Assembly: GCA_964646225.1 (NCBI GenBank)
Contig: CAZYAD010000003.1
Location: 1,894-65,893, forward strand
DNA length: 64,000 bases
Source: an uncultured Oscillospiraceae bacterium
Lineage (GTDB): Bacteria > Bacillota > Clostridia > Oscillospirales > Butyricicoccaceae
Direction of reading: 5' to 3'
Of this stretch, positions 1-47,081 are shown in pieces; position 1 is the first letter of the stretch, and the number at the start of each line of letters is the position of its first letter. Made by a program: the position numbers and the translations under genes. The notes under the pieces are model-generated. The model had not been told where the DNA came from, searched no databases, and saw only the letters and a program-made list of their open reading frames with translations.

Positions 1-293
1 ATCCCGTTGATGGTGCGGAACTCCAGCCGCCCAGCGTGCTCCGCGCCAAAGGTCTGGGCAAAGCGGCGGCGCAGATCGGCGGTGGCCGCCACGGTATAGG
101 TGACGGTGAGGATGCTCTCCGGCGGCACCTCCCGGCCATAGAGCAGATAGCCTACCCGCGCCAGCAGGGCAGTGGTCTTTCCGCTGCCCGGCACCGCCAG
201 CAGCAGCACCGGCCCCTCTGTCTGCCGGACGGCAGCCTCCTGCTGCCGATCCAGCCGCAGGGAGAAACGGCTTCGAAACGCCTCAAACTCCAT
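1..293 (-). CDS. UvrD/PcrA-family ATP-dependent DNA helicase, N-terminal fragment (gene continues past window start)
   Basis: Absent from the ORF track because it runs off the window. Minus-strand translation from the ATG at 293-291 gives MEFEAFRSRFSLRLDRQQEAAVRQTEGPVLLLAVPGSGKTTALLARVGYLLYGREVPPESILTVTYT. This contains helicase motif I (PGSGKTT) in UvrD-type context. ATGA overlap with the stop of the upstream gene. Confidence 0.8.
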   Translation of the reverse strand, partial: MEFEAFRSRFSLRLDRQQEAAVRQTEGPVLLLAVPGSGKTTALLARVGYLLYGREVPPESILTVTYTVAATADLRRRFAQTFGAEHAGRLEFRTING

Positions 294-1231
294 CATTCGT
301 GGCAGTACAGCCGCTTGTTGTCCAGGGCGAACACCCGCTCAGAGAACTGCCCGGGCTCCAGCTTTTCCAGCGTCTCCCGATAGATCTCCATACGGCTGTC
401 GATCAGGTCGATGTAGCACAAAAGCTCGGCCTCGGCGCACTGAGGCAGCACCGCCGCGCCGAACTCCGGCTGGCCGTGGTGAGAGAGCAGCATATGCTGC
501 AGCAGCATGGAGCGCTCCCCAGTGACGCCGCAGGCGTCGCAGACCTCCCGGACCTCCTGCGCCCCCATCACCAGATGCCCCAGCAGCTGCCCCTCGGTGG
601 TGTAATCCGAGACCAGACCGGCCGGGGAGACCCGGAACTCCCGGATCTTGGCGAAGTCATGGAGAAAGGTTCCGGCCAGCAGCAGATCTCTGTTCAGAAA
701 ATCGCCGTACTGCGCCGCCAGAAAGACGGCAGTCTTCATCATGTTCAGGGTGTGCATCAGCAGCCCGTGGACAAACCCGTGGTGGACGCTTTTGGCGGCG
801 GGAATGGTGATAAAGGCCTCACGGTGCAGCAGGAGCATCCGGCGGCATACCGCCTGATAGCCCTCGTCCTGCATGCTGTCCAGCAGCCTCTCCAGCTCAT
901 CCAGCGCCTGCTGCAATTCCAGAGGGGCGGTGGGCACCAGCAGACTCAGCTCATAGCGATCCTCCGGCAGGGCGGGCCGGATGCGCTCTGCCGTCACCTG
1001 AAGGGTTCCCTTGAACTCCGAAACCCGGCCCTGGACGCAGACCACCGCCCCCTCGTCCTGGTGGGAGAGCGGGCCGCTGTAATCCCAGACCTTCAGTTCT
1101 ACTGCGGCGGTACGGTCACACAGAATGCCGGACAGATAGGGCTTCCCGGCGGCGGTGGTACGCAGAGAGGCCTGTTTCAATAAATAAAAGCCCGCCAGGC
1201 TCATCCCCGGGCGAATATCGCAAAGCTTCAT
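293..1231 (-). CDS. yhaM: 3'-5' exoribonuclease, OB-fold + HD domain (YhaM-like)
   Basis: Start moved to MKLCDIRPG (ATG at 1231) with GGAG 7-8 nt upstream. N-terminal OB-fold region, then HD-domain motifs HHGFVHGLLMHTL and LHDFAK. 312 aa, matching YhaM size. Confidence 0.75.
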   Translation of the reverse strand: MKLCDIRPGMSLAGFYLLKQASLRTTAAGKPYLSGILCDRTAAVELKVWDYSGPLSHQDEGAVVCVQGRVSEFKGTLQVTAERIRPALPEDRYELSLLVPTAPLELQQALDELERLLDSMQDEGYQAVCRRMLLLHREAFITIPAAKSVHHGFVHGLLMHTLNMMKTAVFLAAQYGDFLNRDLLLAGTFLHDFAKIREFRVSPAGLVSDYTTEGQLLGHLVMGAQEVREVCDACGVTGERSMLLQHMLLSHHGQPEFGAAVLPQCAEAELLCYIDLIDSRMEIYRETLEKLEPGQFSERVFALDNKRLYCHE

Positions 1232-1285
1232 AGTAAATCTCCTTTTCACAGTCAGGTGGCGGAACGGATCAAAACAGATATCAGC

Positions 1286-1314
1286 ATTATAACAGCTGAC
1301 CGAACGGTTTTCAA
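1286..1314 (-). promoter_or_regulatory. Putative sigma-70 promoter for yhaM-helicase operon
   Basis: Minus strand reads TTGAAA, 17 nt, TATAAT, about 50 nt upstream of the yhaM start. Confidence 0.5.
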
Positions 1315-1403
1315 CCGTCTGCAAAGGGAAAAACCGCCTCTGGGGGAGGCAAACTCTCCGTGCAGAATCCGGATACAAAGAGCGCTTCGCCGTGAAAAAG
1401 GAG

Positions 1404-1432
1404 TTGCCAAAACGATGGAAGTGTGCTAAAAT
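1404..1432 (+). promoter_or_regulatory. Putative sigma-70 promoter driving the riboswitch leader
   Basis: TTGCCA (1404-1409), 17 nt spacer, TAAAAT (1427-1432), with TGc immediately upstream (extended -10). Confidence 0.55.
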
Positions 1433-1450
1433 AACTTCTAAAAGTACATA

Positions 1451-1560
1451 TGAACTGAATGGCTCTGCCCGTGAGGGTAGGTGGAATGGGGTGCGAGTCC
1501 CCGCGAGTCGGTCACTGTGAAGCCGCAAGTGCGGATAAGTCAGATACACCGGGCTGTTCA
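1451..1560 (+). promoter_or_regulatory. Cobalamin (B12) riboswitch aptamer, compact variant
   Basis: GGAAUGGGGUGCGAGUCCCCGCGAGUCGGUCACUGUGAAGC matches the conserved core as I recall it (GGUG..A.UCC hairpin, then C.G.C..CACUGU). A short CCGCAAGUGCGG hairpin follows, then the B12-box-like AAGUCAGAUACACC. P1 closes with GCCCG (1467-1471)/CGGGC (1550-1554) and outer TGAAC (1451-1455)/GTTCA (1556-1560). Consensus is from memory of the Rfam cobalamin family, not a covariance-model score. Confidence 0.7.
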
Positions 1561-1600
1561 GGGCACCTGCCAACACCGGGATCGCCAGCAGAGAGACCCT

Positions 1601-1632
1601 CCGCGCAGCGCTTCCGGCTGCGCGGTTTTTTT
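1601..1632 (+). terminator. Intrinsic terminator forming the riboswitch expression platform
   Basis: CCGCGCAGC (1601-1609), 7-nt loop, GCUGCGCGG (1617-1625), followed by UUUUUUU. Lies about 115 nt upstream of the first CDS. Confidence 0.8.
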
Positions 1633-1748
1633 GTGTGAAACGCGATCATCTGCGCCTGTAACCATGACCTCCGGCGCTGAAAGCGCCATCGACCATCATC
1701 GGCTTTCAGAAAACATCGGAGTCTGCTCCGAAAAAAGGAGAAAATCAC

Positions 1749-2924
1749 ATGAAACAGAGAACAGTAGCCATCCTGTTTGCCCTGCTGCTGCTGGTAAATG
1801 TTCTTCCGGCGGCCTCGGCAGCGGAGGGCGCCGCACTGACGCTGGATTCCGGCCCGGTAGCGGAGGACGGCACGGTCACGCTGACCATTTCCCTGCAGGA
1901 CAACCCCGGCATGGCGGCATTCATGCTTTATATTTACTATGACACCTCGGTGTTTTCAGCCGACCCCGCCGGCGACCTTTCCGCTGCGGGCGTTTTCCGA
2001 AAGGAGGGCGGACTGCTCGGCAACACCATCGCCACCGCCCGGGCCAATGGCCGCTATAACGGCGACAGCCGGAAGGACGGTCTGCTGGCCCTGTGGTACA
2101 ACGGCTCCGGCATCGATACCACCGGCAGCGGCACGGTGATGACCGTCACCCTCCATGCAGACCCCAACGCCGCCAGCGGCGATTATACGGTGGAACTGGG
2201 CTATTCCCTGACGGATACCTGTAACCGGAACGGCGAGAAGGTTGCTCTTCGGACAGCTTCCGCCGTGGTCACCCTTTCCGGCAGCGGCGAGGGGCCGCAG
2301 CCCGGCCCGAGCGGCAGTAAAGCCGAAACGCCCGCTCTGCCAGAGACACCGGAGCAGCCTGAGGCCCCCGCCTTTCTGGATGTTTCCGGCCACTGGGCAG
2401 AGGAGCACATCCTGCGGGCGGCGCAGCAGAGCCTGATTTTGGGCTACAACGGCTACTGCCGTCCCAATGACACCATGACCCGCGCGGAGTGCGTCACCAT
2501 TCTCCACCGGGCCAGCGGCTCGCCCAAGCCGGCCGCCGCCCCCACCTTTACCGACCTGGATCCCCAGCAGCAATGGTACTGGGAGGCAGTGGCCTGGGCA
2601 GAGGAGACCGGCGTGGTCAAGGGCATCGGCGGCGGGAAGTTCGCCCCCGGCGGTACGGTTACCCGCGAGCAGCTGGCAACCATCCTACACCGGCTTTCCG
2701 GCCAGGGTGCCGGGATGGAGGGCCTGCTGACCCCGGTCTATGATCAGACCTACCGCGACAGCGCCCAGATCAGCGACTGGGCAAAGGCGGATCTTTACTG
2801 GTCTCTGTACAATGGCATTTATTGCGGCACCGACTCCCTCCCGGTGGGCGAGACCCTTGCCCCCACGGCGGCAGCCAGCCGCGCCCAAATCGCGGTGATG
2901 ATCGTCCGCTGGCTGGAACAATAA
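1749..2924 (+). CDS. Secreted cell-wall anchor: N-terminal cohesin domain + Pro/Glu linker + three SLH repeats
   Basis: AGGAG RBS and signal peptide MKQRTVAILFALLLLVNVLPAASA. Cohesin-like block TVTLTISLQDNPGMAAFMLYIYYDTSVF...GDYTVELGY. PEAP-rich linker. SLH-type repeats FLDVSGHWAEEHI..., FTDLDPQQQWYWEAVAWA..., YRDSAQISDWAKADLYWS... Confidence 0.85.
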   Translation: MKQRTVAILFALLLLVNVLPAASAAEGAALTLDSGPVAEDGTVTLTISLQDNPGMAAFMLYIYYDTSVFSADPAGDLSAAGVFRKEGGLLGNTIATARANGRYNGDSRKDGLLALWYNGSGIDTTGSGTVMTVTLHADPNAASGDYTVELGYSLTDTCNRNGEKVALRTASAVVTLSGSGEGPQPGPSGSKAETPALPETPEQPEAPAFLDVSGHWAEEHILRAAQQSLILGYNGYCRPNDTMTRAECVTILHRASGSPKPAAAPTFTDLDPQQQWYWEAVAWAEETGVVKGIGGGKFAPGGTVTREQLATILHRLSGQGAGMEGLLTPVYDQTYRDSAQISDWAKADLYWSLYNGIYCGTDSLPVGETLAPTAAASRAQIAVMIVRWLEQ

Positions 2925-2942
2925 AAAGAGAGGATGGATACT

Positions 2943-3545
2943 GTGAAAAAGCTTACCCGTTTGACAACGCTTCTGCTGGCCCTGACCCTGGCCCTCAGCT
3001 TTACGGCTCTGGCGGAGGACGCAAAGACCGAAAATGACAAGGCCACCATCAAGAATGTGCTCACCGGCGCTACCGTGACCTTTGATGAGACCGTTGATGA
3101 GAAAATCCTGGTGACCTACACCAGCGAGGATCTTGTCCCCGACAGCTTCTATCTGGTGATGATGGTGTCCAGCGATGCCCAGGGCAACTACGATGCCATC
3201 ACCAAAGGCAACCTCACCTATATCGATCAGGTGACTGCGGATGAAAGCAAGTCCATCAGCTTTACGGTGTATCCCTCCAAGCTGACCACCAGCGTCATCC
3301 TGATCACCAGTGCGGAGGGCACGCTGAAAGCTGCCATCGTAGAGGCCAAGTACATCCTGGGGGATGTGGACGGCAGCGGAGCCGTGAACTCTGGCGATGT
3401 TACATATCTGTTGCAGTATCTTGCAGGATATGATGTGTCCAGCAAGTTTGTTGCGGCAGCTGCTGATATTGATAAAAGCGGAGCCGTGAACTCTGGCGAT
3501 GTGACCAAGCTGTTGCAGGTGCTTGCCGGATTTGCAGCATTGTAA
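2943..3545 (+). CDS. Small secreted protein: unknown beta-rich N-domain + C-terminal type-I dockerin
   Basis: GTG at 2943 (VKKLTRL...) sits 8-9 nt after GAGGA; the ATG at 2934 abuts the SD and is the alternative start. Signal peptide ends ALA-ED. The C-terminus carries two Ca-binding dockerin segments, GDVDGSGAVNSGDVTYLLQYLAG and ADIDKSGAVNSGDVTKLLQVLAG. Confidence 0.85.
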   Translation: MKKLTRLTTLLLALTLALSFTALAEDAKTENDKATIKNVLTGATVTFDETVDEKILVTYTSEDLVPDSFYLVMMVSSDAQGNYDAITKGNLTYIDQVTADESKSISFTVYPSKLTTSVILITSAEGTLKAAIVEAKYILGDVDGSGAVNSGDVTYLLQYLAGYDVSSKFVAAAADIDKSGAVNSGDVTKLLQVLAGFAAL

Positions 3546-3564
3546 AAGAAATAGAGGTGCAGAC

Positions 3565-6500
3565 ATGAAACAGATTTGGAAAAAGAGCCTGTCGCTGGCC
3601 CTGACGCTGGCCCTGACGCTGGCGCTCTGTTCTCCCGCCTTTGCGGACGAGCCGGAAAGCGGCAAGCCGGCGATTACGGTAGGCAGCGTGGAGGTCAGTG
3701 TATCGGATAGAACGGTGACCGTTCCTGTCGAAATCAGCAACAATCCGGGCATTGCCTCCTGTAGGTTGGATTTTGACATTCCCACTGATTGGGAAATGAC
3801 AGAAATCGAAACCAGACAGACAACTGTTTACGGCATTTTCTACGGTTTGAACAAATACAATGAGATGATGCAGATTGGTAGCTTTACCAATAATCCAGAA
3901 ATCGGAAGATTGGTTTGGGCACACGAGGCGGATAACCACAATAACGGCACTATTTGCTGGCTTACCTATCAACTGCCGGACGACATTGTCAGCGGCGAAT
4001 ATACAATCGGCATCGGCATTAAGACGGGCAGCGAAGTTGTGCCTTATCTCAGTAATGCCAACGATACTGGCGAGAATCTCGCCTCCCAGTTTACCTTCAC
4101 CTCCGGCACGGTCACGGTGATGGATGAAGCTTCGGTGGCGCCCGCGATCACCACGCAGCCTGCAAGCGGCACCTACACCTATTCTACCACTCCCCCCACG
4201 GTGGAGCCCCTGAAGGTGGAAGTCACGGTCGAGCAGGTGGGCGGCGAGCTTACCTATCAGTGGTACAAGGGTAACGCGGCCATCGCGAATGCCACGGCCA
4301 ACACCTACATTCCGACTCTGCCCGCAGTCGGCAGCAGCGAAAGCTATCACTGCGTGATCACCAACACCTATCAGGGCAGAGCATACACGGTCACCTCTGA
4401 GACGGCCACCGTCACCTATAACAAGGCCGATCAGGCGCCCCTCACCGTCGCCGGCCGGGACACCGTCACCTACGGTGAAACCGCCACATACACCGCCAAC
4501 GGCGGCAGCGGCAACGGCAATGTGACCTGGAGCGTCGAGGGGGATGTTGCCACCATCGACCAGAACGGCGTTCTGACTCCCAACGGCACCGGCACGGTCA
4601 ATGTCAAGGCCGAAAAGGCGGCTGACGACAATTACAACGCCACATCCGCCAACAGATATGTCACCATCAACGCCGCCGACCTGACGCTGGACGGCAGCGA
4701 AAGCTACGATGTGACGGTCTACACCAGCAGAAAGCCCGTCACCCTCACCGTTCCCACCGCCACGGCGAAAAACGGACAGACGGTCAACCCCACATGGAGC
4801 ACCAGCGGCAATGTCACGCTGGATAATGGCACCGTCACCGCTGCGGAGAACGCCAAAGACGGCGACACCGCCACCGTCACCCTGACCTACAGCGCGAACC
4901 ACCACAACAGCAAGACTGTCACCTACCACATCACCGTCAAGGATAAGAACGATGTGTCTGACAAGCTGAGCTTCACCTCCAAGGACATGAAGGCGGACTA
5001 TGACGGCGAGGCCAAGACGGCGGACACCTTCGTCCACGCTGCCACCATGCCCGAGGGCTACACCGGCACCATCACCTATACCCTCAATGGTCAGAGCAGC
5101 ACCGACCTGAGCCAGCTTTCCGTCACGGATGCCGGAAACTATACCATCACCGCCACCTACTCCGACGATGAGAACGAGGGCAGCCGGAGTCTGTCCTTCA
5201 CTATCGACCGGGCCAAGGTGGAAAAGCCCACCGCTGTGACCGGTCTGGAGTACGACGGCACCAAGCAAACCGGCGTGACCTGTGTGGAAAATGCCGGTTA
5301 CACCATGAGCGGCACCCTGGCCGCCACCAACGCGGGCGACTACACCGCCACCGCTACGCTGGACGATAACCACCAGTGGACCGACGAAACCAGAGACCCC
5401 CTGACCATTTCCTGGTCCATCGCGCAGAAGAAGATCGATGTCAGCGGCTACGAGTGGGATTACACCGAGGACTTCACCTATGACGGCGCGGAGCATTCCG
5501 TCAAGGTCATCGTGCCCGAAGCTGACCAGGCCTTCGTGGATATCGCCTACTACGCTACTTGCAAAGCCACCGATGTCAACCGCTATACTGCCTCTGCAAC
5601 CGCGAATGTGAAACAAGCCTTCGCGCAGAACTACAAGATCGAGGGCGAGATCGCCAATCGCTCATGGAGCATTAACCCCGCGCCCATCGATGTTTCCGGC
5701 GTGAAATTTGAGCAGGACGATATCACCTATGACGGCAAGGAGCATACCGTCTCTGTCACTGACCTGCCGCAGTTCGTGACGGTGACCTACAAAGGCACTC
5801 GCACTGCCATCAATGCGGACGATTACACGGTTCAGGCCATGCTCAAACCGGACAACAACCACAGTCTCGTTCCCGGCGAGGGCCAGACTCCATGCGGCGA
5901 CGGCAGCGTTGGCATCAACCTCACCTGGAAGATCCTCCGCGCCGAAATTCCCGCGACGCAGGAGCCCACTGCTGTGACCGGTCTGGTCTATAACGGCACC
6001 GAGCAAACCGGCGTGAACTATGTGGAAAATGCCGGTTACACCATGAGCGGCAACCTGACCGCCACCAACGCAAGTGACAACTACACCGCCACCGCCACGC
6101 CGGACGGCAACCACAAGTGGGCCGACGGAACCACCGAACCCAAGACCTTCGACTGGCGCATCGGTAAGAAGTCCGTCACGCTGCCCAACCACACCATTTC
6201 CCTGCGCTACTCCAACACCGACGGGCAGACCTTCACCGTCGAGCAGCTGAAGACCCTGCTGGGCGACACCAATCAGGGGACCACGGTCAGCATCGACAGC
6301 GTGGAGAGGACAGAGAATGGCATCATTGCAGCAGGTGCGACTAATACCTCTGCGAGCGTGAGCTTTACCCTGAACAGCGGTCTGACCGCCCAGGATGCAG
6401 GCAAGTACGATACCCTCACGGTCGAATATTCGAGCAATAACTATACCGATGGCCGCGTCACGCTGGTCATCACCGTGATGAACAAGGAGAATGTTTCCGA

Positions 6501-8559
6501 AAGCATCACCTTCGAAGACGGCTCCTCCACCTATGACGGCGCCGACAAGACCTATGCAGAAGCCACAGTCAGCGGCATCACCGCCGGTGGCGATCCTCAG
6601 TGGACTTACACCTACAAGCAGGGTGACACTGAGCTGGATGCCATGAAGGATGCCGGCAGTTACACCGTCATCGCTACCTATGAGGATGCTGACAACTACG
6701 GCACGGCAGAGGCGGTCTATACCATCTCTCCCGCCACGCTGACCATCAGCAGCGCCGTCGTCGATGAGAAGGTTTATGACGGCACAACGGAAGCCACAGT
6801 CACCGACGTGATCTTCGACGGTCTGGTGGGGGATGAGAGCGTCGATTATGAAGTGACCAGCGCGGCCTTTGAAAATGCCAATGTAGGCGTGAACAAGACC
6901 GTCAACTTCACCGTTGCGCTGAATAGCAGCGTGACCAACTACGCCATCCCGCAAGACAGCGCCCGGGCCACGGCCAAAGGCACCATCACGGCCAAAGGTG
7001 TGATTGTGTTCTTTGCAACTCCTGAAGCGCAACACTATACCGGCAGAGACATCACGCCTGAGCCTTTTGTCGATGTCGACGGCACGGTGAACAGTTATCA
7101 GCTGGAAAAGGACAGGGATTACACCCTGGTCTACAGCAATAACCGCAATGTGGGCACTGCCACGATCACTGTCGTCCCTGCTTCCGGCAGCAACTACACC
7201 TTTACAAATACCTCCGATACCTTTGATATCCTTGCCGCAGAGCTCAGCGGCCTGACCGCCGAAAATCTGGTGGTTACCTATACCGGTCTGCAGCTGGATG
7301 CCAGCCGCATCCGCGGCACGGCCTACTTCAACGGTGCGCAGGTGCCCGGCACCTGGAGCTGGGTCACCGAGCCCGCGGGTGTGGACGCCAGCGAGACGCC
7401 CTACCCCGCCCGGGTGCGCTTCACGCCGGAGAGCAGCAACCTGCTCAAGGCCGAGACCGACATTACTGTCACCATTCGCAAGGTCACGCCCACCGGCGAG
7501 CCTTCCTATACCGTCCTCACCGGCACCGGCAAGACTCTTGCTGATGCTCAACTGGGCATCGGCACCATCACCCCGGCGGGCGGCACCATCCGCTGGGTGG
7601 ATGAAAGCGGCGTCGAGCTGCCTCTGACCACTGTGGTCAATCCTCAGGAGGCCTATACCTGGCAGTACATCCCGGCGGATCCTGTCAACTACAATGTCCT
7701 CACCGGCACCATCACTCCCTGCAAGTACCAGAACATCCCCGTGGTGGGCCCCTCCAACCAGACCAAGGTGGAGCAGCCCGACAACGGCGAGATCGCTGTC
7801 AAGCCCGCCCATGCTGCGGCCGGCAGCACCGTCACCGTGACGGTCACGCCGGATGACGGCTATGTGCTGGAGGAGCTGCGTGTGCTGGATAAGCACGGCA
7901 ACGAGCTGGAACTGAAGGATCTGGGCAATGGCTGCTATTCCTTCACCATGCCCTCCGGCGGCGTGGAGGTGGATGCCACCTTCGCTTCCGAGGAGCAGCC
8001 TGCCCCGGTGGTGTTCAGCGATGTGCCCGCAGACGCCTGGTATGCCAATGCTGTTTACAGCGCGGTGGAGCAGGGCCTGTTCAGCGGCACCGGCGAGACC
8101 ACCTTTGCTCCTGAAATGCCCATGAGCCGCTCCATGCTGGTGACGGTGCTGTGGCGCATGAGCGGTGAGCCCGCCGCCACGGCGGCCAGCGGCTTTGCCG
8201 ATGTGCAGCAGGACTCCTGGTATCAGAAAGCGGTTGACTGGGCCAGCGCTACCGGCCTGGTCAAAGGACTGGGCGACAACCTCTTCGGTTCCGAAACCAA
8301 CCTCTCCCGCGAGCAGCTGGCAACCATCCTGTTCCGCTATGCCCAGCAGCTGGGTCTGGATACCTCTGCCCGCGCCGATCTCAGCGCCTTTGACGATTTC
8401 AGCCAGGTCAGCCCCTACGCGCAGGACGCCATGTCCTGGGCGGTGGCTGTGGGCCTGATCTCCGGCACCGGTGACGGCAGCCTGGCTTCCATGGGTGACG
8501 CGACCCGCGCCCAGGTAGCAACGATCCTGCTGCGCTTCCAAGACAAGTTCGGCCTGTAA
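3565..8559 (+). CDS. Giant cell-surface protein (1664 aa): cohesin-like domain, many Ig/MBG(YDG)-type repeats, three C-terminal SLH repeats
   Basis: GAGG RBS 7 nt upstream and signal peptide MKQIWKKSLSLALTLALTLALCSPAFA. Cohesin-like block ITVGSVEVSVSDRTVTVPVEISNNPGIASCRLDFDIP...GEYTIGIGI. Repeated ...YDG..K/H... Thr-rich modules across about 1200 aa. SLH repeats FSDVPADAWYANAV..., FADVQQDSWYQKAVDWA..., FDDFSQVSPYAQDAMSWA... Confidence 0.85.
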   Translation: MKQIWKKSLSLALTLALTLALCSPAFADEPESGKPAITVGSVEVSVSDRTVTVPVEISNNPGIASCRLDFDIPTDWEMTEIETRQTTVYGIFYGLNKYNEMMQIGSFTNNPEIGRLVWAHEADNHNNGTICWLTYQLPDDIVSGEYTIGIGIKTGSEVVPYLSNANDTGENLASQFTFTSGTVTVMDEASVAPAITTQPASGTYTYSTTPPTVEPLKVEVTVEQVGGELTYQWYKGNAAIANATANTYIPTLPAVGSSESYHCVITNTYQGRAYTVTSETATVTYNKADQAPLTVAGRDTVTYGETATYTANGGSGNGNVTWSVEGDVATIDQNGVLTPNGTGTVNVKAEKAADDNYNATSANRYVTINAADLTLDGSESYDVTVYTSRKPVTLTVPTATAKNGQTVNPTWSTSGNVTLDNGTVTAAENAKDGDTATVTLTYSANHHNSKTVTYHITVKDKNDVSDKLSFTSKDMKADYDGEAKTADTFVHAATMPEGYTGTITYTLNGQSSTDLSQLSVTDAGNYTITATYSDDENEGSRSLSFTIDRAKVEKPTAVTGLEYDGTKQTGVTCVENAGYTMSGTLAATNAGDYTATATLDDNHQWTDETRDPLTISWSIAQKKIDVSGYEWDYTEDFTYDGAEHSVKVIVPEADQAFVDIAYYATCKATDVNRYTASATANVKQAFAQNYKIEGEIANRSWSINPAPIDVSGVKFEQDDITYDGKEHTVSVTDLPQFVTVTYKGTRTAINADDYTVQAMLKPDNNHSLVPGEGQTPCGDGSVGINLTWKILRAEIPATQEPTAVTGLVYNGTEQTGVNYVENAGYTMSGNLTATNASDNYTATATPDGNHKWADGTTEPKTFDWRIGKKSVTLPNHTISLRYSNTDGQTFTVEQLKTLLGDTNQGTTVSIDSVERTENGIIAAGATNTSASVSFTLNSGLTAQDAGKYDTLTVEYSSNNYTDGRVTLVITVMNKENVSESITFEDGSSTYDGADKTYAEATVSGITAGGDPQWTYTYKQGDTELDAMKDAGSYTVIATYEDADNYGTAEAVYTISPATLTISSAVVDEKVYDGTTEATVTDVIFDGLVGDESVDYEVTSAAFENANVGVNKTVNFTVALNSSVTNYAIPQDSARATAKGTITAKGVIVFFATPEAQHYTGRDITPEPFVDVDGTVNSYQLEKDRDYTLVYSNNRNVGTATITVVPASGSNYTFTNTSDTFDILAAELSGLTAENLVVTYTGLQLDASRIRGTAYFNGAQVPGTWSWVTEPAGVDASETPYPARVRFTPESSNLLKAETDITVTIRKVTPTGEPSYTVLTGTGKTLADAQLGIGTITPAGGTIRWVDESGVELPLTTVVNPQEAYTWQYIPADPVNYNVLTGTITPCKYQNIPVVGPSNQTKVEQPDNGEIAVKPAHAAAGSTVTVTVTPDDGYVLEELRVLDKHGNELELKDLGNGCYSFTMPSGGVEVDATFASEEQPAPVVFSDVPADAWYANAVYSAVEQGLFSGTGETTFAPEMPMSRSMLVTVLWRMSGEPAATAASGFADVQQDSWYQKAVDWASATGLVKGLGDNLFGSETNLSREQLATILFRYAQQLGLDTSARADLSAFDDFSQVSPYAQDAMSWAVAVGLISGTGDGSLASMGDATRAQVATILLRFQDKFGL
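5227..5380 (+). repeat. Intragenic repeat copy A (module KPTAVTGLEYDGTKQTGV...ENAGYTMSG)
   Basis: About 150 nt closely similar to 5965-6120, offset 738 nt (246 codons). A 32-nt identical run lies at 5283-5314 and 6021-6052. Confidence 0.8.
5965..6120 (+). repeat. Intragenic repeat copy B (module EPTAVTGLVYNGTEQTGV...ENAGYTMSG)
   Basis: Partner of 5227-5380; the in-frame protein repeat is visible at DNA level. Confidence 0.8.
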
Positions 8560-8589
8560 GCCGGAAGAACGCCCGATCACAGACAAGCA

Positions 8590-8630
8590 AAAGCATCCAC
8601 AGGCAGCCGCCTGTGGATGCTTTTTGCTGT
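8590..8630 (+). terminator. Intrinsic terminator of the surface-protein operon
   Basis: GCATCCACAGGC (8593-8604), loop AGCC, GCCTGTGGATGC (8609-8620), followed by TTTTTGCTGTTTT. Confidence 0.85.
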
Positions 8631-8675
8631 TTTCCGGCGCCCTTGCGGCAGCGTCGGCTTTTTCCCCGTACCCTC

Positions 8676-8704
8676 TTGCCAAATGCGTCGGCTTGCGGTA
8701 TAAT
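8676..8704 (+). promoter_or_regulatory. Sigma-70 promoter for the ABC transporter operon
   Basis: TTGCCA (8676-8681), 17 nt spacer, TATAAT (8699-8704). Confidence 0.65.
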
Positions 8705-8711
8705 AAGAACA

Positions 8712-8821
8712 GCCACTTTCGTTTCTGACACCGAAATAGGCATTGAGGTGAAAGATACAGTTGAGCGTTTTTTGGTGTACCCGGAACGGTAACTGCATCT
8801 TTCGGATGTGGTTATTTTTTT
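8712..8821 (+). promoter_or_regulatory. Unclassified 5' leader with terminator/antiterminator alternative (candidate riboswitch or attenuator)
   Basis: Hairpin at 8712-8741. Terminator UAACUGCAUC (8790-8799)/GAUGUGGUUA (8805-8814) followed by U7, ending about 20 nt before the start codon. Upstream GAUACAGUU (8754-8762) is 8/9 complementary to the terminator 5' arm. Confidence 0.5.
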
Positions 8822-8841
8822 ACAACAAAGGAGTACCCAAA

Positions 8842-9903
8842 ATGAAACTGAACAAGCTGCTCTCTCTGCTGCTGGCCGCCCTGCTGGCATTTTCCCTGTG
8901 CGCCTGCGGCTCAGAGCCCGCAAACGACCCCGAAACCCCCGACACGCCCGAGGTGTCCGATCCCGCGCAGCCCGAAGCACCCGCAGAGCCTGAAACGCCG
9001 ACCGAGCCGGAGGTGGACGCGGAGCTGCCGGTGAATATCATGGTGCTCAACGGCACCACCGGCTTCGGCATGGCCAAGCTGATCTCCGATAACGCCAACG
9101 GTCAGACCGCTCTGAATTACAGCATTGCGGTGGAGACCGATGCCAGCAACATCACCGCCGCTCTCATCAACGGCAGCGTGGATATCGCCGCCCTGCCCAC
9201 CAACGCCGCCAGCGTGGTGTACAACAAGACCGAGGGCGCTGTCCAGGCGCTGGCCCTGAATACCCTGGGCGTACTGTATCTGGTGGCCGACAACGGCGAG
9301 AACATCACAGCCCTGTCTGATCTGGAGGGCAAGACCGTCTTTGTTCCTGCTCAGAATCCCACCTTCATCTTCCAGGCTATCTGCTCTGCCGCCGGTGTCA
9401 ATGTGACGGTGGACAACACCTATGCTCAGCCTGCCGATCTGCGTACCGCCGTGGCCGCCGGCGAGGTCAAGCTGGCCGTCCTGCCCGAGCCCATGGTGAC
9501 CATCGCCTGCGCCGGAAACGAGAACCTGACCGTTGCGCTGGATCTCACTGCGCAGTGGGATACCGTTTATCCCGCCGGAAGTCTGGTGCAGGGCTGCGTG
9601 GTGGTGCGCCGTGCCTTTGCGGAGGAGCATCCCGCCGAAGTGGCAAAGTTCCTGGAGGAGTATGAGGCTTCCATCGCCTATCTGTCCGAGGATACCGCTT
9701 CCGCCGCGCAGATGATCGTGGATGCCGGGATCTTTGCCCAGGCCCCCGTGGCCCAGAAGGCCATTCCCAAGTGCAACCTGTGCTTCATCGCCGGTGCCGA
9801 TATGCAAACCGCGCTGGGTGGCTTCCTGGAGACCATGTTCGGCGTGGCCCCCGCCTCTGTGGGCGGTGCCGTCCCCGGTGACGATTTCTACTATATTGGC
9901 TGA
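8842..9903 (+). CDS. ABC transporter substrate-binding lipoprotein, NMT1/THI5-like (NitT/TauT-type)
   Basis: AAGGAG RBS and lipobox LAFSLCAC-G with a Pro/Glu-rich tether. Mature domain VNIMVLNGTTGFGMAKLI... is typical of NMT1-like periplasmic binding proteins. Followed by a cognate permease and ATPase. Confidence 0.8.
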   Translation: MKLNKLLSLLLAALLAFSLCACGSEPANDPETPDTPEVSDPAQPEAPAEPETPTEPEVDAELPVNIMVLNGTTGFGMAKLISDNANGQTALNYSIAVETDASNITAALINGSVDIAALPTNAASVVYNKTEGAVQALALNTLGVLYLVADNGENITALSDLEGKTVFVPAQNPTFIFQAICSAAGVNVTVDNTYAQPADLRTAVAAGEVKLAVLPEPMVTIACAGNENLTVALDLTAQWDTVYPAGSLVQGCVVVRRAFAEEHPAEVAKFLEEYEASIAYLSEDTASAAQMIVDAGIFAQAPVAQKAIPKCNLCFIAGADMQTALGGFLETMFGVAPASVGGAVPGDDFYYIG

Positions 9904-17136: not shown

Positions 17137-18353
17137 GCGTCCTCCTTTTCATCGGCAAGCTTTTCCGCCCGATCGGAATAGATCAGGATGGGCTCGCCTT
17201 CGGGGCTGACCGTCACCGAGCGCGGGCCGGAAACTGCCGCAGCTTCGGTGGTGACCGTGCCGTCCTCCCGCAGACGGACGGTGGTCAGCCGGTCATAGGT
17301 CAACAGACAGGCCGTACCGGCGCGACAGCTCACCGCCCGCAGCGTCCCCTGCTCAGAACCGCTCCAGAGGGGCTCCAGTCCGTCGCCCAGCAGCAGAAGC
17401 TCCGCACCCCGGCTGCCCTGCTCCCCGGCGTCAAAGGCCAGCAGCAGCGCCTCCTCCTCCCGGGCGGAAAACATCCGCAGCTCCCGGGAAAAGTCCCGAG
17501 ACGCGGTGACGCTGCCTGCCGCGCAGCGCAAAACGCCGTCGGCACATAGTATGACCAGCCCGCCGGTTTTATCATGGAACAGCGCCAGCACCTGACGCTC
17601 CTCCAGCAAAAGGCTCCAGGCGGGCTGCTCCTGCCCGATCTCAAAATAGAGCACCTGGGTGGTCAGTGAAAGACCATCCTGCCCCAGGCACAGAGCGGCA
17701 AAGCTCTCGCCGTCGGGGCTGACCGAGGTCATCATCACATAATACTGGGTGGTGAGCCAACGGCACAGCAGTTGCTGCCGGTCGTCATAGACGGTCACCG
17801 CCGAGCGGCAGCCCGTCTGGTCGGTCACCAGGGCAAAATCGCCCCGAGCGTTCATGGTGGCCGTCAAAATCGGGCTGTCGGTGTTGTCCCGGAGATATTC
17901 AGCATAGTGATTGGCAATGCAAAAGCCTGTGCCGCCCCGATCATACAGCAGCACATAGCGATCCCCGGTGCAGATGGCCGGGTCGCCGTACCGCAGCTGG
18001 ATGGAATAGCGGCTGTTGCCCAGCCCGCTGACGAAGGAGTAGGTATCGCCGGAGGTCACCGCCAGCCCGGAGCCGAAGGGCTGACAGACGGTGTCCAGCC
18101 CGGACTCGAATTCATAGCGGGTGAAGGGGTCGGTCACTGCGCCCGCCGCCTTGAGATAGGCGCCGAGGCGGGAGAGATTTTCCGGCCGGAGATTTTCGTG
18201 ATACCGGAAAATGCCGAATACCACACAGGCCAGCATCCCCAGCAGGGCCAGAGAATGGAGCACACCGGTGACCGCCAGGCGCTTGTCCTGCCGGAACCGG
18301 GTGATATTGCCCGCCAGCCTGCCCGGCTTCCGGCGATCAGTCCGATCTTCCAT
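17133..18353 (-). CDS. Hypothetical membrane-anchored protein (one N-terminal TM helix, large extracytoplasmic beta-rich domain)
   Basis: 406-aa ORF in an operon with cvpA. TM segment LHSLALLGMLACVVFGIF. No catalytic motif recognised. Confidence 0.6.
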   Translation of the reverse strand: MEDRTDRRKPGRLAGNITRFRQDKRLAVTGVLHSLALLGMLACVVFGIFRYHENLRPENLSRLGAYLKAAGAVTDPFTRYEFESGLDTVCQPFGSGLAVTSGDTYSFVSGLGNSRYSIQLRYGDPAICTGDRYVLLYDRGGTGFCIANHYAEYLRDNTDSPILTATMNARGDFALVTDQTGCRSAVTVYDDRQQLLCRWLTTQYYVMMTSVSPDGESFAALCLGQDGLSLTTQVLYFEIGQEQPAWSLLLEERQVLALFHDKTGGLVILCADGVLRCAAGSVTASRDFSRELRMFSAREEEALLLAFDAGEQGSRGAELLLLGDGLEPLWSGSEQGTLRAVSCRAGTACLLTYDRLTTVRLREDGTVTTEAAAVSGPRSVTVSPEGEPILIYSDRAEKLADEKEDA

Positions 18354-19101
18354 CCAATTCCTCCATTTGATAGTTCAGTGCGGTCATATACAGCCCCATG
18401 GGGGGCGCGGTGGGGCCGGCGGCCAGCCGATCCCGGCTTTCCAGCAGGGCGGGGATGCCGTCCGGCGGGATCTTCCCGATGCCCACATAAACCAGTGTGC
18501 CGGTGATGGCCCGCACCATGTTGTACAAAAAGCCGTCGGCGCATACCCGGATGGCGATGATATCGCCGGGGCGCTGCTCGACCTCACAATAATAAATGGT
18601 GCGCACCGTGCTTTTCACCGGCGTGCCTTCATTTTTGACGGCGGCAAAGTCCTGCCGTCCCACAAAATCCCTTGCGGCCCGCTGCATGGCGGCCACATCC
18701 AGCTTCTGGGGATAGGCCCAGGCCCGGCTCACCAGAAAGGGATCCCGTACCCGGCTGTTGTGGATGAGATAGGTATATTCCTTGCTGACACAGGAGAACC
18801 GGGCATCAAACTCGTCAGGCACCAGCACGGCTCTGCGCACCACCACTGCCTCCGGCAGCCGGGCGTTGAGGGCCATGGGCAGCCGCTGGGTGGGAATGGA
18901 GGACACATGATCCAGCGAACACACATAATACCGGGCGTGAACCCCGGCGTCGGTGCGCCCGCAGCCCGAGACATAGACGCGCCTTCCGCAGGTCTTTTCC
19001 CACGCCTCCTCCACCAGCTGCTGGATGGTCATGGCGTTATTCTGCCGCTGCCAGCCGTGATAGTCGGTGCCCAGATAGGACAGTACCAAAGCAGTTTTCA
19101 T
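18337..19101 (-). CDS. truA: tRNA pseudouridine(38-40) synthase
   Basis: MKTALVLSYLGTDYHGWQRQ... and catalytic GRTDAGVHA motif. Confidence 0.9.
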   Translation of the reverse strand: MKTALVLSYLGTDYHGWQRQNNAMTIQQLVEEAWEKTCGRRVYVSGCGRTDAGVHARYYVCSLDHVSSIPTQRLPMALNARLPEAVVVRRAVLVPDEFDARFSCVSKEYTYLIHNSRVRDPFLVSRAWAYPQKLDVAAMQRAARDFVGRQDFAAVKNEGTPVKSTVRTIYYCEVEQRPGDIIAIRVCADGFLYNMVRAITGTLVYVGIGKIPPDGIPALLESRDRLAAGPTAPPMGLYMTALNYQMEELDGRSD

Positions 19102-19131
19102 GTGTCGTTTCCTTTCTGCCTGCGGCAGCCG

Positions 19132-19929
19132 TTACAGCAGGATATTCAGCGCAATGGCCGCGCCGCAGGCCAGCACTGCCAGGCCGCCACCCAGGGCATC
19201 CACCCGGCTGTAGGCCAGACTGTGCAACCGGGTGCGCTTACCGCCGCTGTACAGCCGGCATTCCATGGCACAGGCCAGCTCATCTGCCCGGCGAAAGGCC
19301 GAAACGAACAGCGGCACCAGCACCGGCACCAGAGCCTTTGCACGCTGGAGCAGATTTCCGCTCTCAAAATCCGCCCCCCGGGCCTTCTGTGCCGACATGA
19401 TCTTGTCGGTCTCCTCGATGAGGGTGGGGATGAACCGGAGAGCGATGGACATCATCATGGCGAACTCATGCACCGGGATATGCAGCCGCTTCAGCGGCGA
19501 AAGCAGCCGCTCCAGCCCGTCGGTCAGCGCCATGGGGGAGGTGGTATAGGTCAGCAGGGCCGTGGAGGACACCAGCAGCAGGATCCGGGCGATCATGACG
19601 GCCGCGGTAGCCAGCCCCTCCCATGTGACCGAAAAGATCCACAGACGGAAGATCTCCCGTCCGGGGGTGTAAAACAGGTTCAGCAGTCCGGTAAAGATCA
19701 CCAGGATGACAATAGGCTTGAGGGATTTTGCGATCATCTTCGGCGGGATGCCCGACAGACGGATGACCGCCAGCAGCCCCAGCCCGCACAGAACAAAGGC
19801 CGCCGCGCCGTCGCACACAAAAATGGTGACGATGAACAAAACCAGACTCAGCAGCTTGGAGCGGGGGTCCATCCGGTGCAGGGGAGAGCTGCCGGGGAAA
19901 AACTGCCCCAGGGTGATATCCTTCAGCAC
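19132..19929 (-). CDS. ecfT: ECF transporter transmembrane (T) component
   Basis: Multi-pass membrane protein with ...SAQKARGADF... coupling motifs, immediately downstream of two ECF ATPases. Confidence 0.85.
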   Translation of the reverse strand: MLKDITLGQFFPGSSPLHRMDPRSKLLSLVLFIVTIFVCDGAAAFVLCGLGLLAVIRLSGIPPKMIAKSLKPIVILVIFTGLLNLFYTPGREIFRLWIFSVTWEGLATAAVMIARILLLVSSTALLTYTTSPMALTDGLERLLSPLKRLHIPVHEFAMMMSIALRFIPTLIEETDKIMSAQKARGADFESGNLLQRAKALVPVLVPLFVSAFRRADELACAMECRLYSGGKRTRLHSLAYSRVDALGGGLAVLACGAAIALNILL

Positions 19930-20789
19930 AGGGCCTCACCGCCCTTCAGCGCCCGCAGCCGCCGGACGGCTTCCTCCACGGTGTATACATCGGTGCCCAC
20001 CGGCACGCCCCGCTTTTTCAGCTCCAGAAATACCCGGGTGATCTGGGGGACATCCAGCCCCGCCTGCTCCAGCTCCTCCGCCCGGGCAAAGACCTCCTGC
20101 GGCGTGCCGTCCATAAGAATATGCCCGTGATCCATCACCAGGATGCGCCGGGCCATCTGGGCGGCATATTCCATGCTGTGGGTGACAAACAGAATGGTGG
20201 TGCCGTGCTTTTCGTGATAGGCCCGGATGAACCGGAACACATCGGCGCACCCGGCAGGATCCAGCCCGGCCATGGGCTCGTCCAGCACCAGCACCTCGGG
20301 CTCCATGGCAAAGATGCCCGCCAGCGCCACACGGCGCTTCTGTCCGCCCGAAAGCTCAAAGGGCGATTTGTCCAGAGCTTCCTCACGCAGTCCCACGATG
20401 CGGCAGTTTTCCCGTACCCGTCGGTCGATCTCCGCCTTGTCCAGTCCCATATTTTTGGGGCCGAAGGCGATGTCGGCATAGACGGTCTCCTCAAACAACT
20501 GATATTCCGGATACTGAAACACCAGCCCCACGGCAAACCGCGCCGCCCGGGTCAGCTCTTTGGATTGAAAAATATCCTCTCCGTTGATGAGCACCCGGCC
20601 CTGCGTGGGCCGCAAAAGACCGTTGAAATGCTGGATCAGGGTGGATTTTCCGCTGCCGGTGTGGCCGATCAGGCCGATAAACTCCCCCCGCCGCGCCGAA
20701 AAGGACACATCATCCACCGCCTTTTTTTCAAAGGGCGTCCCGGCGCTGTAGATATGTGAAAGATGCTCGATGCGCAAAACTTCGTTCAT
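19923..20789 (-). CDS. ecfA2: ECF transporter ATPase A2
   Basis: Start at MNEVLRIEHL (ATG 20789), overlapping the ecfA1 stop. Walker A GHTGSGKST, signature LSGGQKRRVALAG. Confidence 0.9.
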   Translation of the reverse strand: MNEVLRIEHLSHIYSAGTPFEKKAVDDVSFSARRGEFIGLIGHTGSGKSTLIQHFNGLLRPTQGRVLINGEDIFQSKELTRAARFAVGLVFQYPEYQLFEETVYADIAFGPKNMGLDKAEIDRRVRENCRIVGLREEALDKSPFELSGGQKRRVALAGIFAMEPEVLVLDEPMAGLDPAGCADVFRFIRAYHEKHGTTILFVTHSMEYAAQMARRILVMDHGHILMDGTPQEVFARAEELEQAGLDVPQITRVFLELKKRGVPVGTDVYTVEEAVRRLRALKGGEALC

Positions 20790-21616
20790 GTGTTCGCTCC
20801 CAGATACTTGAGGATTTGGTCGGCGCATTCCTCCACCGACAGCGCGCCCCGATCCAGCCCGGAGTCCAGCTCACGCAGCAGCAGGACGGTCTGGGGCGCT
20901 GTGAGAGAAAGCTCCTCCAGCCGCTCCACCTGTGAAAAGACTTCCCGGGGGGTGCCGTCCATGGCCACCTGCCCGTTCTTCATCACCACCACCCGGTCGG
21001 CCAGCGCCGCTTCGTCCATATGGTGGGTGATGAGGATGACTGTCATGCCGTTTTCCCGGTTGAGCCGCCGCACGGCAGAGATGACCTCCTCCCGTCCGGC
21101 GGGATCCAGCATGGCGGTGGGCTCGTCCATGATGATACACCGGGGCCGCATGGCCAGCACCCCGGCAATGGCTACCCGCTGCTTCTGTCCGCCGGACAGA
21201 AGATGGGGCGCGTGGCGGGCGTATTCGCTCATGCCCACCGCCGCAAGGCTCTCATCCACCCGGCGGCGGATCTCCTCCGGCGGCAGCGCCATGTTTTCGC
21301 AGGCAAAGGCAACATCCTCCTCCACCACCGTGGCCACAATCTGATTGTCCGGGTTCTGAAAGACCATGCCCGCCGTGCGGCGGATGTCAAACAGCCGCGC
21401 CTCCTCCCGGGTATCCAGCCCGGCCACATAGACCGCCCCACCGGAGGGCAGCAGAATGGCGTTCATCTGCTTGGCAAGGGTGGATTTTCCGCTGCCGTTG
21501 TGCCCCAGAATGGTGGTAAACGACCCCTCTTCCACCGAAAGGGTCACCCCGTCCAGCGCCGGTGCGCCATCGTCGTCATAGCGGAAGGACAGGTTTTCGG
21601 TACGGATGATGGCCAT
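20786..21616 (-). CDS. ecfA1: ECF transporter ATPase A1
   Basis: Walker A GHNGSGKST, signature LSGGQKQRVAIAG, Walker B IIMDEP. Confidence 0.9.
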   Translation of the reverse strand: MAIIRTENLSFRYDDDGAPALDGVTLSVEEGSFTTILGHNGSGKSTLAKQMNAILLPSGGAVYVAGLDTREEARLFDIRRTAGMVFQNPDNQIVATVVEEDVAFACENMALPPEEIRRRVDESLAAVGMSEYARHAPHLLSGGQKQRVAIAGVLAMRPRCIIMDEPTAMLDPAGREEVISAVRRLNRENGMTVILITHHMDEAALADRVVVMKNGQVAMDGTPREVFSQVERLEELSLTAPQTVLLLRELDSGLDRGALSVEECADQILKYLGANT

Positions 21617-46665: not shown

Positions 46666-46739
46666 GCAGGTGTAGTTCAATGGTAGAATGTCAGCCTTCC
46701 AAGCTGAACACGTGGGTTCGATTCCCATCACCTGCTCCA
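46666..46739 (+). tRNA. tRNA-Gly (anticodon UCC)
   Basis: Cloverleaf: acceptor GCAGGTG/CACCTGC, anticodon stem TCAGC/GCTGA with loop CTTCCAA, T-arm GTGGGTTCGATTCCCAT, encoded CCA. Confidence 0.9.
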
Positions 46740-46771
46740 GTTCTTCATCAGCCTATCTTCCTGATTGAAAT

Positions 46772-46848
46772 GCGCCTGTAGCTCAGCAGGATAGAGCAAC
46801 TGCCTTCTAAGCAGTAGGTTGGGGGTTCGAGTCCCTCCAGGCGCGCCA
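46772..46848 (+). tRNA. tRNA-Arg (anticodon UCU)
   Basis: Acceptor GCGCCTG/CAGGCGC, anticodon stem ACTGC/GCAGT with loop CTTCTAA, T-loop GGTTCGAGTCC, encoded CCA. Confidence 0.9.
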
Positions 46849-46856
46849 GTTTATAT

Positions 46857-46934: not shown

Positions 46935-47000
46935 CTTTTTTGATGTGCCCGCTCCTCGAAAGAGGGGCGTGTACATTATTTCGCCGGAGGGCGGCCATAC

Positions 47001-47075: not shown

Positions 47076-47081
47076 AAACCT

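Follow-up and report, generated by a model that had tools for sequence, protein, structure and literature searches.

The leader and operon at 1404-8630

We analysed a 64-kb stretch of DNA (64,000 nucleotides (nt), here called the window) from an uncultured Oscillospiraceae bacterium, in which positions 1404-8630 hold three genes for predicted secreted proteins behind a leader that resembles a cobalamin (vitamin B12) riboswitch. A first-pass annotation had suggested that this unit could be a cellulosome-style scaffold of cohesin, dockerin and S-layer homology (SLH) modules, made only under B12 limitation. The promoter, aptamer, leader terminator, three secreted proteins and final terminator were all found where that annotation had placed them:

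1404-1432, plus strand: promoter-like site of the sigma-70 type (TTGCCA-17-TAAAAT, 10/12, extended TG; consensus scan)
1441-1583, plus strand: predicted aptamer of a variant cobalamin-riboswitch subclass (covariance model from relatives; sub-threshold RF00174 match)
1576-1617, plus strand: candidate anti-terminator, 1576-1585 (P13 3' arm and linker) being able to pair with 1608-1617
1601-1632, plus strand: intrinsic terminator of the leader, the expression platform (hairpin 1601-1625, 9-base-pair (bp) stem with 8 G-C, then U7)
1735-1740, plus strand: ribosome-binding site AAGGAG, 8 nt 5' of the ATG at 1749 (read from the sequence)
1749-2924, plus strand: gene 1, secreted anchor of 391 amino acids (aa) with signal peptide, cohesin, Pro/Glu-rich linker and SLH repeats
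2934-3545, plus strand: gene 2, secreted protein of 203 aa with signal peptide, all-beta sandwich of ~100 aa and two-segment type-I dockerin
3565-8559, plus strand: gene 3, secreted protein of 1664 aa with N-terminal cohesin, Ig-like repeats (MBG_3, YDG, Flg_new_2) and three SLH repeats
8589-8630, both strands: bidirectional intrinsic terminator at the end of the operon (hairpin 8589-8624, 16-bp stem, T-runs on both strands)

The gaps between the three same-strand open reading frames (ORFs) are 9 nt and then 19 nt; the length of gene 3 is counted from an ATG, with an alternative TTG start at 3523. The promoter ends about 9 nt 5' of the aptamer-model match, and the same spacing is seen at a second locus, L041, described below (promoter 8780-8807, aptamer from 8814). 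A Pfam scan of the operon proteins found no transporter, cob/cbi gene, isozyme, glycoside hydrolase (GH) or carbohydrate-binding module (CBM) in the unit.

The leader RNA and its relatives

Folded as a cobalamin riboswitch, the window leader forms the four-way junction of P3-P6, which P1 closes, and has the conserved core and the B12 box; every modelled helix (P1, the P2 arm, P3-P6 and P13) pairs in this copy. P1 is formed by 1455-1465/1551-1561 (11 bp), the P2 arm by 1466-1479 with a GNRA loop, and P3 by 1480-1482/1548-1550. P4 lies at 1488-1491/1499-1502, P5 at 1503-1504/1511-1512 with the loop L5 GAGUCG, and P6 at 1515-1517/1541-1543 with a short hairpin at 1523-1534; the B12-box-like AAGUCAGAUAC occupies 1537-1547. 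Downstream, the P13 hairpin (1566-1580) has the C-rich loop CCAACAC. L5 is G-rich, and a possible L5-L13 kissing loop, which would link aptamer and expression platform, has 2-4 bp of complementarity by eye in the window and its relatives.

Rfam at its gathering threshold gives no cobalamin match in the window. In a sensitive scan of 551 nt, RF00174 aligns over its full length (model positions 1-189) with 1444-1571, but at only 15.6 bits (E=0.1), where the gathering score is 31.5. The B12-type aptamer proposed by the first-pass annotation is thus below threshold by the Rfam cobalamin models, but it aligns to RF00174 from end to end. Riboswitches for cyclic di-GMP commonly control adhesins; as an identity for this leader that class was rejected, with no Rfam match even at E<=10.

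We fished for relatives with a degenerate pattern, GGAANNNGGTGNNANTCCNNGCNNNNNGGTCACTG, that joins generic B12-core positions to the leader's unusual junction and fixes 22 bases. At least 120 metagenome contigs match this core pattern, whereas fewer than one match is estimated by chance for 22 fixed bases, and the matches listed fall into 52 sequence clusters. Outside the pattern, the relatives conserve UGUGA.GC, a variable hairpin, GAUAAGUCAGAUAC, CCUGCC...ACCGGG and a downstream hairpin with the loop CCNNNAC; this C-rich-loop hairpin 3' of the aptamer occurs in the window and in many relatives.

In a model-guided alignment of 46 sequences, the window included, 97.2% of cells are paired and two-sided changes occur at 7 pairs. 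Two-sided cells number 134, compared to 46.9 in shuffles (0/500 shuffles reach 134), and the covariation score of 0.424 falls to 0.091 or less once partners are slid. At positions that the pattern leaves free, the closing pair of P4 is G-C, A-U or C-G among relatives, and P3 reads GGU/ACC, AGU/ACU, AAC/GUU, CAU/AUG or CAC/GUG. For P1, a crude contiguous-helix test across the family gave a mean of 6.6 bp versus 4.6 bp in controls, a weak signal because bulges interrupt the helices.

A covariance model, R1, was built from 45 relatives with the window left out and run on both strands of the 64 kb. It finds a single match, 1441-1583(+), at 111.2 bits (E=3e-29), a score that is partly circular because the relatives were fished with a window-derived pattern. 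Neither the covariation nor the conserved blocks that lie outside the pattern depend on it. By R1 score the window copy ranks 10th of 46, and it matches every invariant family position.

The low Rfam scores extend to the relatives. Nineteen of the 20 family copies tested fall below the gathering score, including those 5' of NrdJ, of a corrin methylase and of a DUF4465 protein, and the single passing copy is that of L077 (48.3 bits). Copies 5' of CobU and MetE reach only ~22 bits (RF01482), and those 5' of CbiD and BtuF are unreported at E<=10 in the sensitive scan. Since 19 of 20 copies fail likewise, the low score reflects the class as a whole and does not mark the window copy as weak. Variant copies also adjoin canonical RF00174 riboswitches, in L041 (46 bits) and in L072 (two, of 84 and 101 bits).

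If E=0.1 in 551 nt is extrapolated, about a dozen chance matches would be expected over all families in 64 kb, and the B12-aptamer likeness might then be fortuitous and the leader an unrelated structured RNA. The comparative data effectively refute this: the leader belongs to a large covarying family with a classic B12 regulon (next section), members stand adjacent to or in tandem with canonical RF00174 riboswitches, and the L077 copy passes Rfam. We therefore regard the leader RNA as almost certainly a genuine aptamer of the cobalamin family.

In one cluster of relatives (C16: L066, L068, L082, L116, L147), an AT-rich stretch of ~100 nt stands between the aptamer core and the AAGUCAG box, where the P6 hairpin would be. 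This may be a disrupted or intron-like variant; an aconitase gene lies downstream.

Genes controlled by the RNA subclass

Family members sit directly 5' of coding genes, typically 150-450 nt away. Genes of biosynthesis and uptake 3' of them include CbiD (L154), CobU (L121/L096), a corrin-type TP_methylase (L136/L060) and two BtuF-type Peripla_BP_2 proteins (L104, L106); others are LysR with MetE (L124), the class II ribonucleotide reductase NrdJ (L069, L133) and energy-coupling factor (ECF)-type ATPases (L115). Because the downstream genes serve B12 synthesis, uptake and use, cobalamins are the probable ligand family of the class. Genes of B12 transport, biosynthesis or enzymes thus accompany the RNA subclass, and none stands in the window's own operon.

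Among the matches listed, 11 clusters precede giant secreted proteins with DUF4430 above the Pfam cut-off, usually together with SLH; several of these giants also give weak, sub-threshold matches to alpha/alpha-toroid families. One further giant protein downstream carries DUF4465. B12 carriers of the transcobalamin type have DUF4430 as their C-terminal domain (PMC4350170), and DUF4465 domains bind B12 (PMC13398666). At the level of the class, these gene neighbourhoods indicate that an SLH-anchored surface response to B12 starvation is real in Gram-positive bacteria.

A cohesin-dockerin system stands behind such RNAs at a second locus. On the minus strand of L041, a promoter precedes a variant and then a canonical cobalamin aptamer, each with its own terminator; two small ORFs come next, then a 2154-aa subtilase (PA, fn3, two dockerin segments) and the start of a protein that matches the window's anchor-cohesin profile (E=5.8e-11), with no strong terminator in between. 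Judged by these predicted features, B12-riboswitch-controlled cohesin-dockerin genes recur in a second, unrelated locus.

L041 has three B12 elements within 700 nt (L041:8273-8955), with back-to-back promoters at 8755-8728 (minus) and 8780-8807 (plus). Elsewhere, in L056, a riboswitch copy lies between two giant surface-protein genes (1-4839 and 5104-9549). The upstream giant (at least 1613 aa) has dockerin segments and cadherin-like repeats, and the controlled downstream giant (1481 aa) has GLUG and CarboxypepD_reg domains; this is a further adjacency of dockerin proteins and the variant subclass.

Several other neighbourhoods of the class are of interest in themselves. Variant copies lie directly 5' of NrdJ at L069:3131-3279(-) and L133:4036-4184(-), and canonical cobalamin riboswitches (L072:2134-2720) lie 5' of methylmalonyl-CoA mutase. 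Repression of B12-dependent enzymes such as NrdJ and the mutase when B12 is present would be counter-intuitive, and these copies may be ON switches or follow some other logic. L072:771-2294(+) has one variant and two canonical aptamers in series, with ORFs of ~100 aa in between. Clusters C4 and C24 (e.g. L129:3710-4828, L088:864-1985), on at least 16 contigs, have a tyrosine integrase gene downstream and include the Rfam-passing copy; this element may mark the edge of an integrated mobile element. The commonest cluster, C3 (at least 17 contigs, e.g. L137:10965-11687(-)), precedes proteins of 240 and 398 aa that have no Pfam match and are candidates for further B12-related functions.

The expression platform

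In 36 of the 46 family members, a hairpin with a U-tract lies within 170 nt of the aptamer, and in one subgroup P13 is itself the terminator. Because so many members carry a terminator, the class appears to act mainly through transcription termination, and ligand is expected to turn such a switch OFF. In the window leader, a duplex of 1576-1585 with 1608-1617 has a predicted energy of -14.4 kcal/mol, compared to a shuffled mean of -9.7 (4% of shuffles equal it), and pairing of 1576-1585 in this way would exclude both P13 and the terminator. The corresponding duplex beats the control mean in nine of 11 evaluable family members. These values are suggestive only, and we treat the pairing as a candidate anti-terminator.

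As the leader is a cobalamin-type riboswitch with a terminator platform, expression limited to B12 shortage, which the first-pass annotation had suggested for the scaffold, is the best reading, and functional B12-repressed gating of the operon (1749-8559) is likely on sequence grounds.

The promoter, aptamer and terminator might instead form an independent unit that makes a B12-controlled, trans-acting small RNA (sRNA) like EutX/Rli55, the operon having a separate promoter. Cobalamin-riboswitch-controlled sRNAs are known, and the leader terminator lies 117 nt 5' of the gene 1 start codon, a distance that would suit such an arrangement. However, the consensus scan found no promoter-like site between 1633 and 1748, and the short distance of family members from coding genes argues for control in cis; we consider an sRNA very improbable.

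Terminator stems at unrelated loci (window 1601-1625; L041 8974-8998; L043, L046, L048, L102) share the motif CCGCRCGGC...GCYGYGCGG. This common motif suggests either a pairing constraint with a conserved segment of the aptamer or P13, or shared descent of aptamer and platform.

The three secreted proteins

Taken singly, the two window cohesins score 19.7 and 16.7 against a Pfam cut-off of 24.1, both sub-threshold, and searches of the PDB with single cohesin-region sequences were uninformative. Profiles of orthologs did give matches. The two ortholog cohesin profiles match each other with an hhalign probability of 99.6%; of nine orthologs of the module in the giant protein, six match Pfam Cohesin (best E=3.6e-9), as do orthologs of gene 1; and the cohesin profile matches solved Ruminococcus cohesins (5m2o, 5aoz). 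Both N-terminal modules are thus borne out as cohesins by their ortholog profiles.

The small protein matches Pfam Dockerin_1 with 35.6 bits (cut-off 22.9), its two segments, DVDGSGAVNSGDVTYLLQYLAG and DIDKSGAVNSGDVTKLLQVLAG, are near-identical, and Foldseek places the dockerin on 3ul4_B with a TM-score of 0.93, so that the canonical two-segment dockerin seen at first pass is well founded. The AlphaFold2 model of this protein (pLDDT 74) shows a beta-sandwich in the N-terminal ~100 aa, for which Foldseek against the PDB returned only generic Ig/FN3-like sandwiches and no B12 binder. The small-protein family has 33 members. SLH matches reach 77.2 and 83.3 bits (Pfam). The C-terminus of the giant protein matches the SLH structures of B. 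anthracis Sap (6bt4, 3pyw), and a PDB sequence search with the giant protein returned SLH and Ig-like matches only.

At E<=0.1, Pfam returned neither a GH or CBM family nor anything else beyond the domains given above for the three proteins, and no other dockerin, cohesin or DUF4430 gene was found in the 64-kb window. Without carbohydrate-active enzymes (CAZymes) or CBMs, the description 'cellulosome-style' fits the cohesin, dockerin and SLH assembly modules and goes no further.

A model for the operon

We favour a model in which a B12-OFF riboswitch gates a cohesin-dockerin surface assembly, and we give this explanation as a whole a probability of roughly 0.5. Transcription would start at ~1440 from the promoter at 1404-1432, and the first ~140 nt would fold into a corrinoid aptamer with a P2 arm and a short P6 hairpin. 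With corrinoid plentiful, the ligand would lock the aptamer and, via L5, P13; the terminator at 1601-1632 would then form, and transcripts would end before the genes. With corrinoid scarce, P13 would be free, its 3' arm would probably pair with the top of the terminator, and polymerase would read through.

The three secreted proteins would then be made. Two would hold the cell-wall polymer through their SLH repeats and display cohesins, one near the wall and the other at the tip of an Ig-repeat stalk of ~1,300 residues, and the small protein would plug into both through its Ca-dependent dockerin. What the data show is the family membership, structure and covariation of the RNA, the B12 regulon of its class, the terminator platform and the protein domains; ligand binding, the OFF direction, aptamer-terminator coupling, cohesin-dockerin pairing and B12 activity of the proteins are steps that we infer. 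The operon would be part of a surface response to B12 starvation, with capturing corrinoids or reaching corrinoid sources as the favoured role; the leader suggests that this gut bacterium remodels some of its cell surface under B12 shortage.

A B12 role for the proteins is argued from the class-wide link with surface proteins bearing B12-binding modules, and from L041. We put the odds that the three proteins act in corrinoid acquisition at a little under even. A more specific proposal is tentative and less probable: the cassette may be a modular, B12-starvation-induced docking platform for corrinoid scavenging in SLH-bearing Bacillota, in which either the sandwich is a new fold that binds corrinoids or a corrinoid source, or the cohesins recruit dockerin-tagged helpers encoded elsewhere. 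In the first variant, the fold may be held at the stalk tip and at the wall as a distal-to-proximal relay; in the second, the L041 dockerin subtilase is an example of a helper that could free B12 from carrier proteins.

Evidence against the model and competing explanations

Several observations weigh against the model. Besides the sub-threshold RF00174 score and the circular share of the R1 score, the complementarity of L5 and L13 in the window is only ~2 bp by eye. Free-energy folding predicted the aptamer, P13 and the terminator together and no strong alternative, folding with constraints revealed no stable anti-terminator, and the candidate anti-terminator duplex reaches the 5% level in only three of the 11 members evaluated. 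The remaining points concern variation among strains, orthologous cassettes and the lack of likeness to corrinoid binders, and are given with the explanations on which they bear.

With the dockerin protein and the divergent, conserved HD-domain gene as handles, eleven strain-level copies of the leader were recovered, a small sample. Conservation of the aptamer within the species does not exceed that of its flanks (9 variable sites in 128 nt), and two changes, at 1466 and 1501, weaken stems. The aptamer could accordingly be a decaying relic that binds no ligand, in a leader that is a constitutive attenuator or neutral. Its confinement to one species-level lineage, its divergence equal to or exceeding that of the flanks, and the change in L027, L028, L030 and L031 of a U-A pair that is invariant in all 46 family members point the same way. 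Yet that change is compensated: at the pair 1516/1542, three haplotypes have U-A, two have U-G and two have C-G, a stepwise compensatory series. Of the other changes, three retain pairing via G-U and one falls in a loop. The terminator and its approach (1584-1632) are 100% conserved among strains, and so strong and invariant a terminator, placed ahead of the genes, would shut the operon off if there were no conditional way past it. The match of the window copy to all invariant family positions, with a score in the upper quarter of the family, also argues against decay. We consider a relic improbable, and take the strain variation as supportive, not as proof, of selection on the leader in the window lineage.

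Conservation of the three-gene cassette extends to orthologs whose small protein is ~40% identical, and no aptamer was found upstream of it in L015/16/17, L018, L019/20, L021, L022/23, L024, L025 and L032. In all of these except L019/20, where the cassette begins 13 nt after another gene, it is preceded by a promoter and an untranslated region (UTR) of ~50 nt only; Rfam at the gathering threshold gave nothing relevant at eight orthologous loci. The notion that orthologous operons keep the riboswitch thus fails for at least seven other lineages, and among the cassettes compared the riboswitch-bearing form is restricted to the window's species-level lineage. Given these cassettes without an aptamer, the basic function of the cassette is independent of B12 control. 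Synteny cannot tell gain of the riboswitch from loss, because L032 and other loci have different neighbours. A search of genome contigs with the cohesin-SLH protein brought up unrelated genomes with generic SLH matches and nothing more specific.

A working riboswitch could also control proteins unrelated to B12 chemistry, the cassette being a general one for adhesion or surface display and corrinoid a niche or physiological cue for adhesion, aggregation or surface variation. The orthologous cassettes, in differing genomic neighbourhoods and mostly behind an ordinary promoter, fit such a role. So does the giant protein, with its adhesin-type Ig repeats: its gene (3565-8559) is 93% identical between strains (window versus L027 and L030), compared to 98-99% for the flanking genes, as expected of an exposed, diversifying surface protein.

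Nor do the three proteins show a B12-binding domain. No likeness to a corrinoid binder was found in them by Pfam (E<=0.1), a DUF4430 profile, Foldseek or PDB sequence searches. The DUF4430 profile, made from the riboswitch-linked proteins, found nothing in any ORF of the 64-kb window or in the orthologous cassettes, and a search for fusions of DUF4430 with dockerin brought up none, although all its matches were short, stand-alone DUF4430 proteins (at most 175 aa). The reading of the first-pass annotation is supported as regards the cobalamin-type riboswitch and terminator platform, but no likeness of the proteins to known corrinoid binders was found. This is a weak negative, because accessory surface proteins encoded in B12-riboswitch loci of Bacteroides were found to bind B12 through folds not seen before (PMC8941943, PMC13398666), and a new fold is conceivable here.

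Three points stand against corrinoid as a mere cue. Cobalamin-riboswitch regulons are almost always linked to B12 supply or use; the subclass often controls surface proteins with B12-binding modules; and a second B12-gated cohesin/dockerin locus exists in L041. We judge the cue explanation possible, at well below even odds, and retain B12-OFF gating of a surface assembly for corrinoid capture as the preferred one.

In L030/L031, a different dockerin half has taken the place of that in the window's small protein (84% aa identity overall). Between strains, the surface cassette diversifies faster than its surroundings.

Neighbouring genes

The gene after the operon (8761-9903) encodes an NMT1-type binding protein of an ABC transporter and has its own promoter (8676-8704, 11/12) 3' of the operon-end terminator. 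On the other side lies a divergent HD/OB-fold gene (293-1231, minus strand) with its own promoter-like site (1314-1286, 11/12, TG); as this promoter and a minus-strand hairpin with a T-run (1352-1334) lie there too, the 517-nt intergenic region is densely filled with signals. Farther away are a cluster of TruA, EcfT (CbiQ family) and EcfA (18337-20828(-)), the shared energising module of ECF vitamin transporters, with no S-component such as CbrT seen nearby, and a cluster of five tRNA genes (46666-47154, plus strand).

Comparison with known systems

The window leader shares with the Rfam clan CL00101 (RF00174, RF01482) a full-length RF00174 alignment, the B12-box-like sequence, a GGUG..A.UCC P4/L4 and a terminator platform, and differs in that it and 19 of 20 family copies score below the gathering threshold. 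Its closest described counterpart among those compared, the atypical B. subtilis yvrC (btuF) riboswitch (Chan and Mondragon 2020, PMC7367189), has the same hybrid layout of a P1-P3 stem-loop arm with a short P6 hairpin, the same P3-P6 four-way junction and the same L5/P13 arrangement; the yvrC type controls B12 uptake genes. Unlike yvrC, the variant subclass has the core GGUCACUG where the consensus is GCCACUG, a purine-rich L5 (GAGNNG) in place of a C-rich one, a C-rich L13, and scores of only ~15-22 bits with the Rfam cobalamin models. With L5 G-rich and L13 C-rich, the kissing loop may have been re-wired and merits structural study.

In the literature searched, which leaves out most subscription journals, we found no named riboswitch class that matches this subclass and no report that links B12 riboswitches to cohesin, dockerin, SLH or DUF4430. 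As a sizeable conserved subclass scores far below the Rfam thresholds, B12 regulons are probably under-called in organisms of gut metagenomes.

Cohesin-dockerin modules are normally discussed for polysaccharide degradation. The operon resembles the anchoring scaffoldins of cellulosomes (C. thermocellum OlpA/OlpB/SdbA) in joining cohesin to SLH and in its two-segment, Ca-binding dockerin; the best structural match of the window's type-I dockerin is Doc918 of the OlpA complex (3ul4_B), and scaffoldin cohesins of Ruminococcus flavefaciens are matched by the window-family cohesin profile. In contrast to a cellulosome, the unit has no GH, CBM or multi-cohesin scaffoldin, its sole dockerin cargo is a 100-aa beta-sandwich, and its control is by a vitamin riboswitch. 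Together with L041, it offers a testable non-cellulosomal case of cohesin-dockerin under vitamin control, with three small, tractable proteins for corrinoid-binding tests.

Surface B12 capture is little known for Firmicutes (PMC8941943), and within the literature searched such systems are covered in depth for Bacteroides only. The Bacteroides proteins BtuG, BtuH and BtuJ (PMC6143338, PMC8941943, PMC13398666) are, like the proteins predicted here, secreted surface accessory proteins from B12-riboswitch loci, with Ig-repeat stalks that carry a terminal functional module. They differ in being outer-membrane lipoproteins of diderms, encoded beside BtuB/BtuFCD and endowed with demonstrated B12-binding domains, whereas the window proteins are SLH-anchored and cohesin-dockerin-assembled, in a unit with neither a transporter nor a recognisable binding domain. 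If the docking platform were real, it would do the work of the extracellular BtuG/H/J relay with cellulosome parts, under the control of a riboswitch subclass that databases miss.

The nearest relatives in control are the SLH-anchored DUF4430 and DUF4465 giants, which share with the window operon the RNA subclass, SLH anchoring and a giant Ig-repeat build. Among the matches listed, these giants dominate the regulon of the subclass, which suggests that Bacillota have a surface system for B12 capture that has hardly been studied. The giants carry the B12-binding module and no cohesin or dockerin; the window proteins are the reverse.

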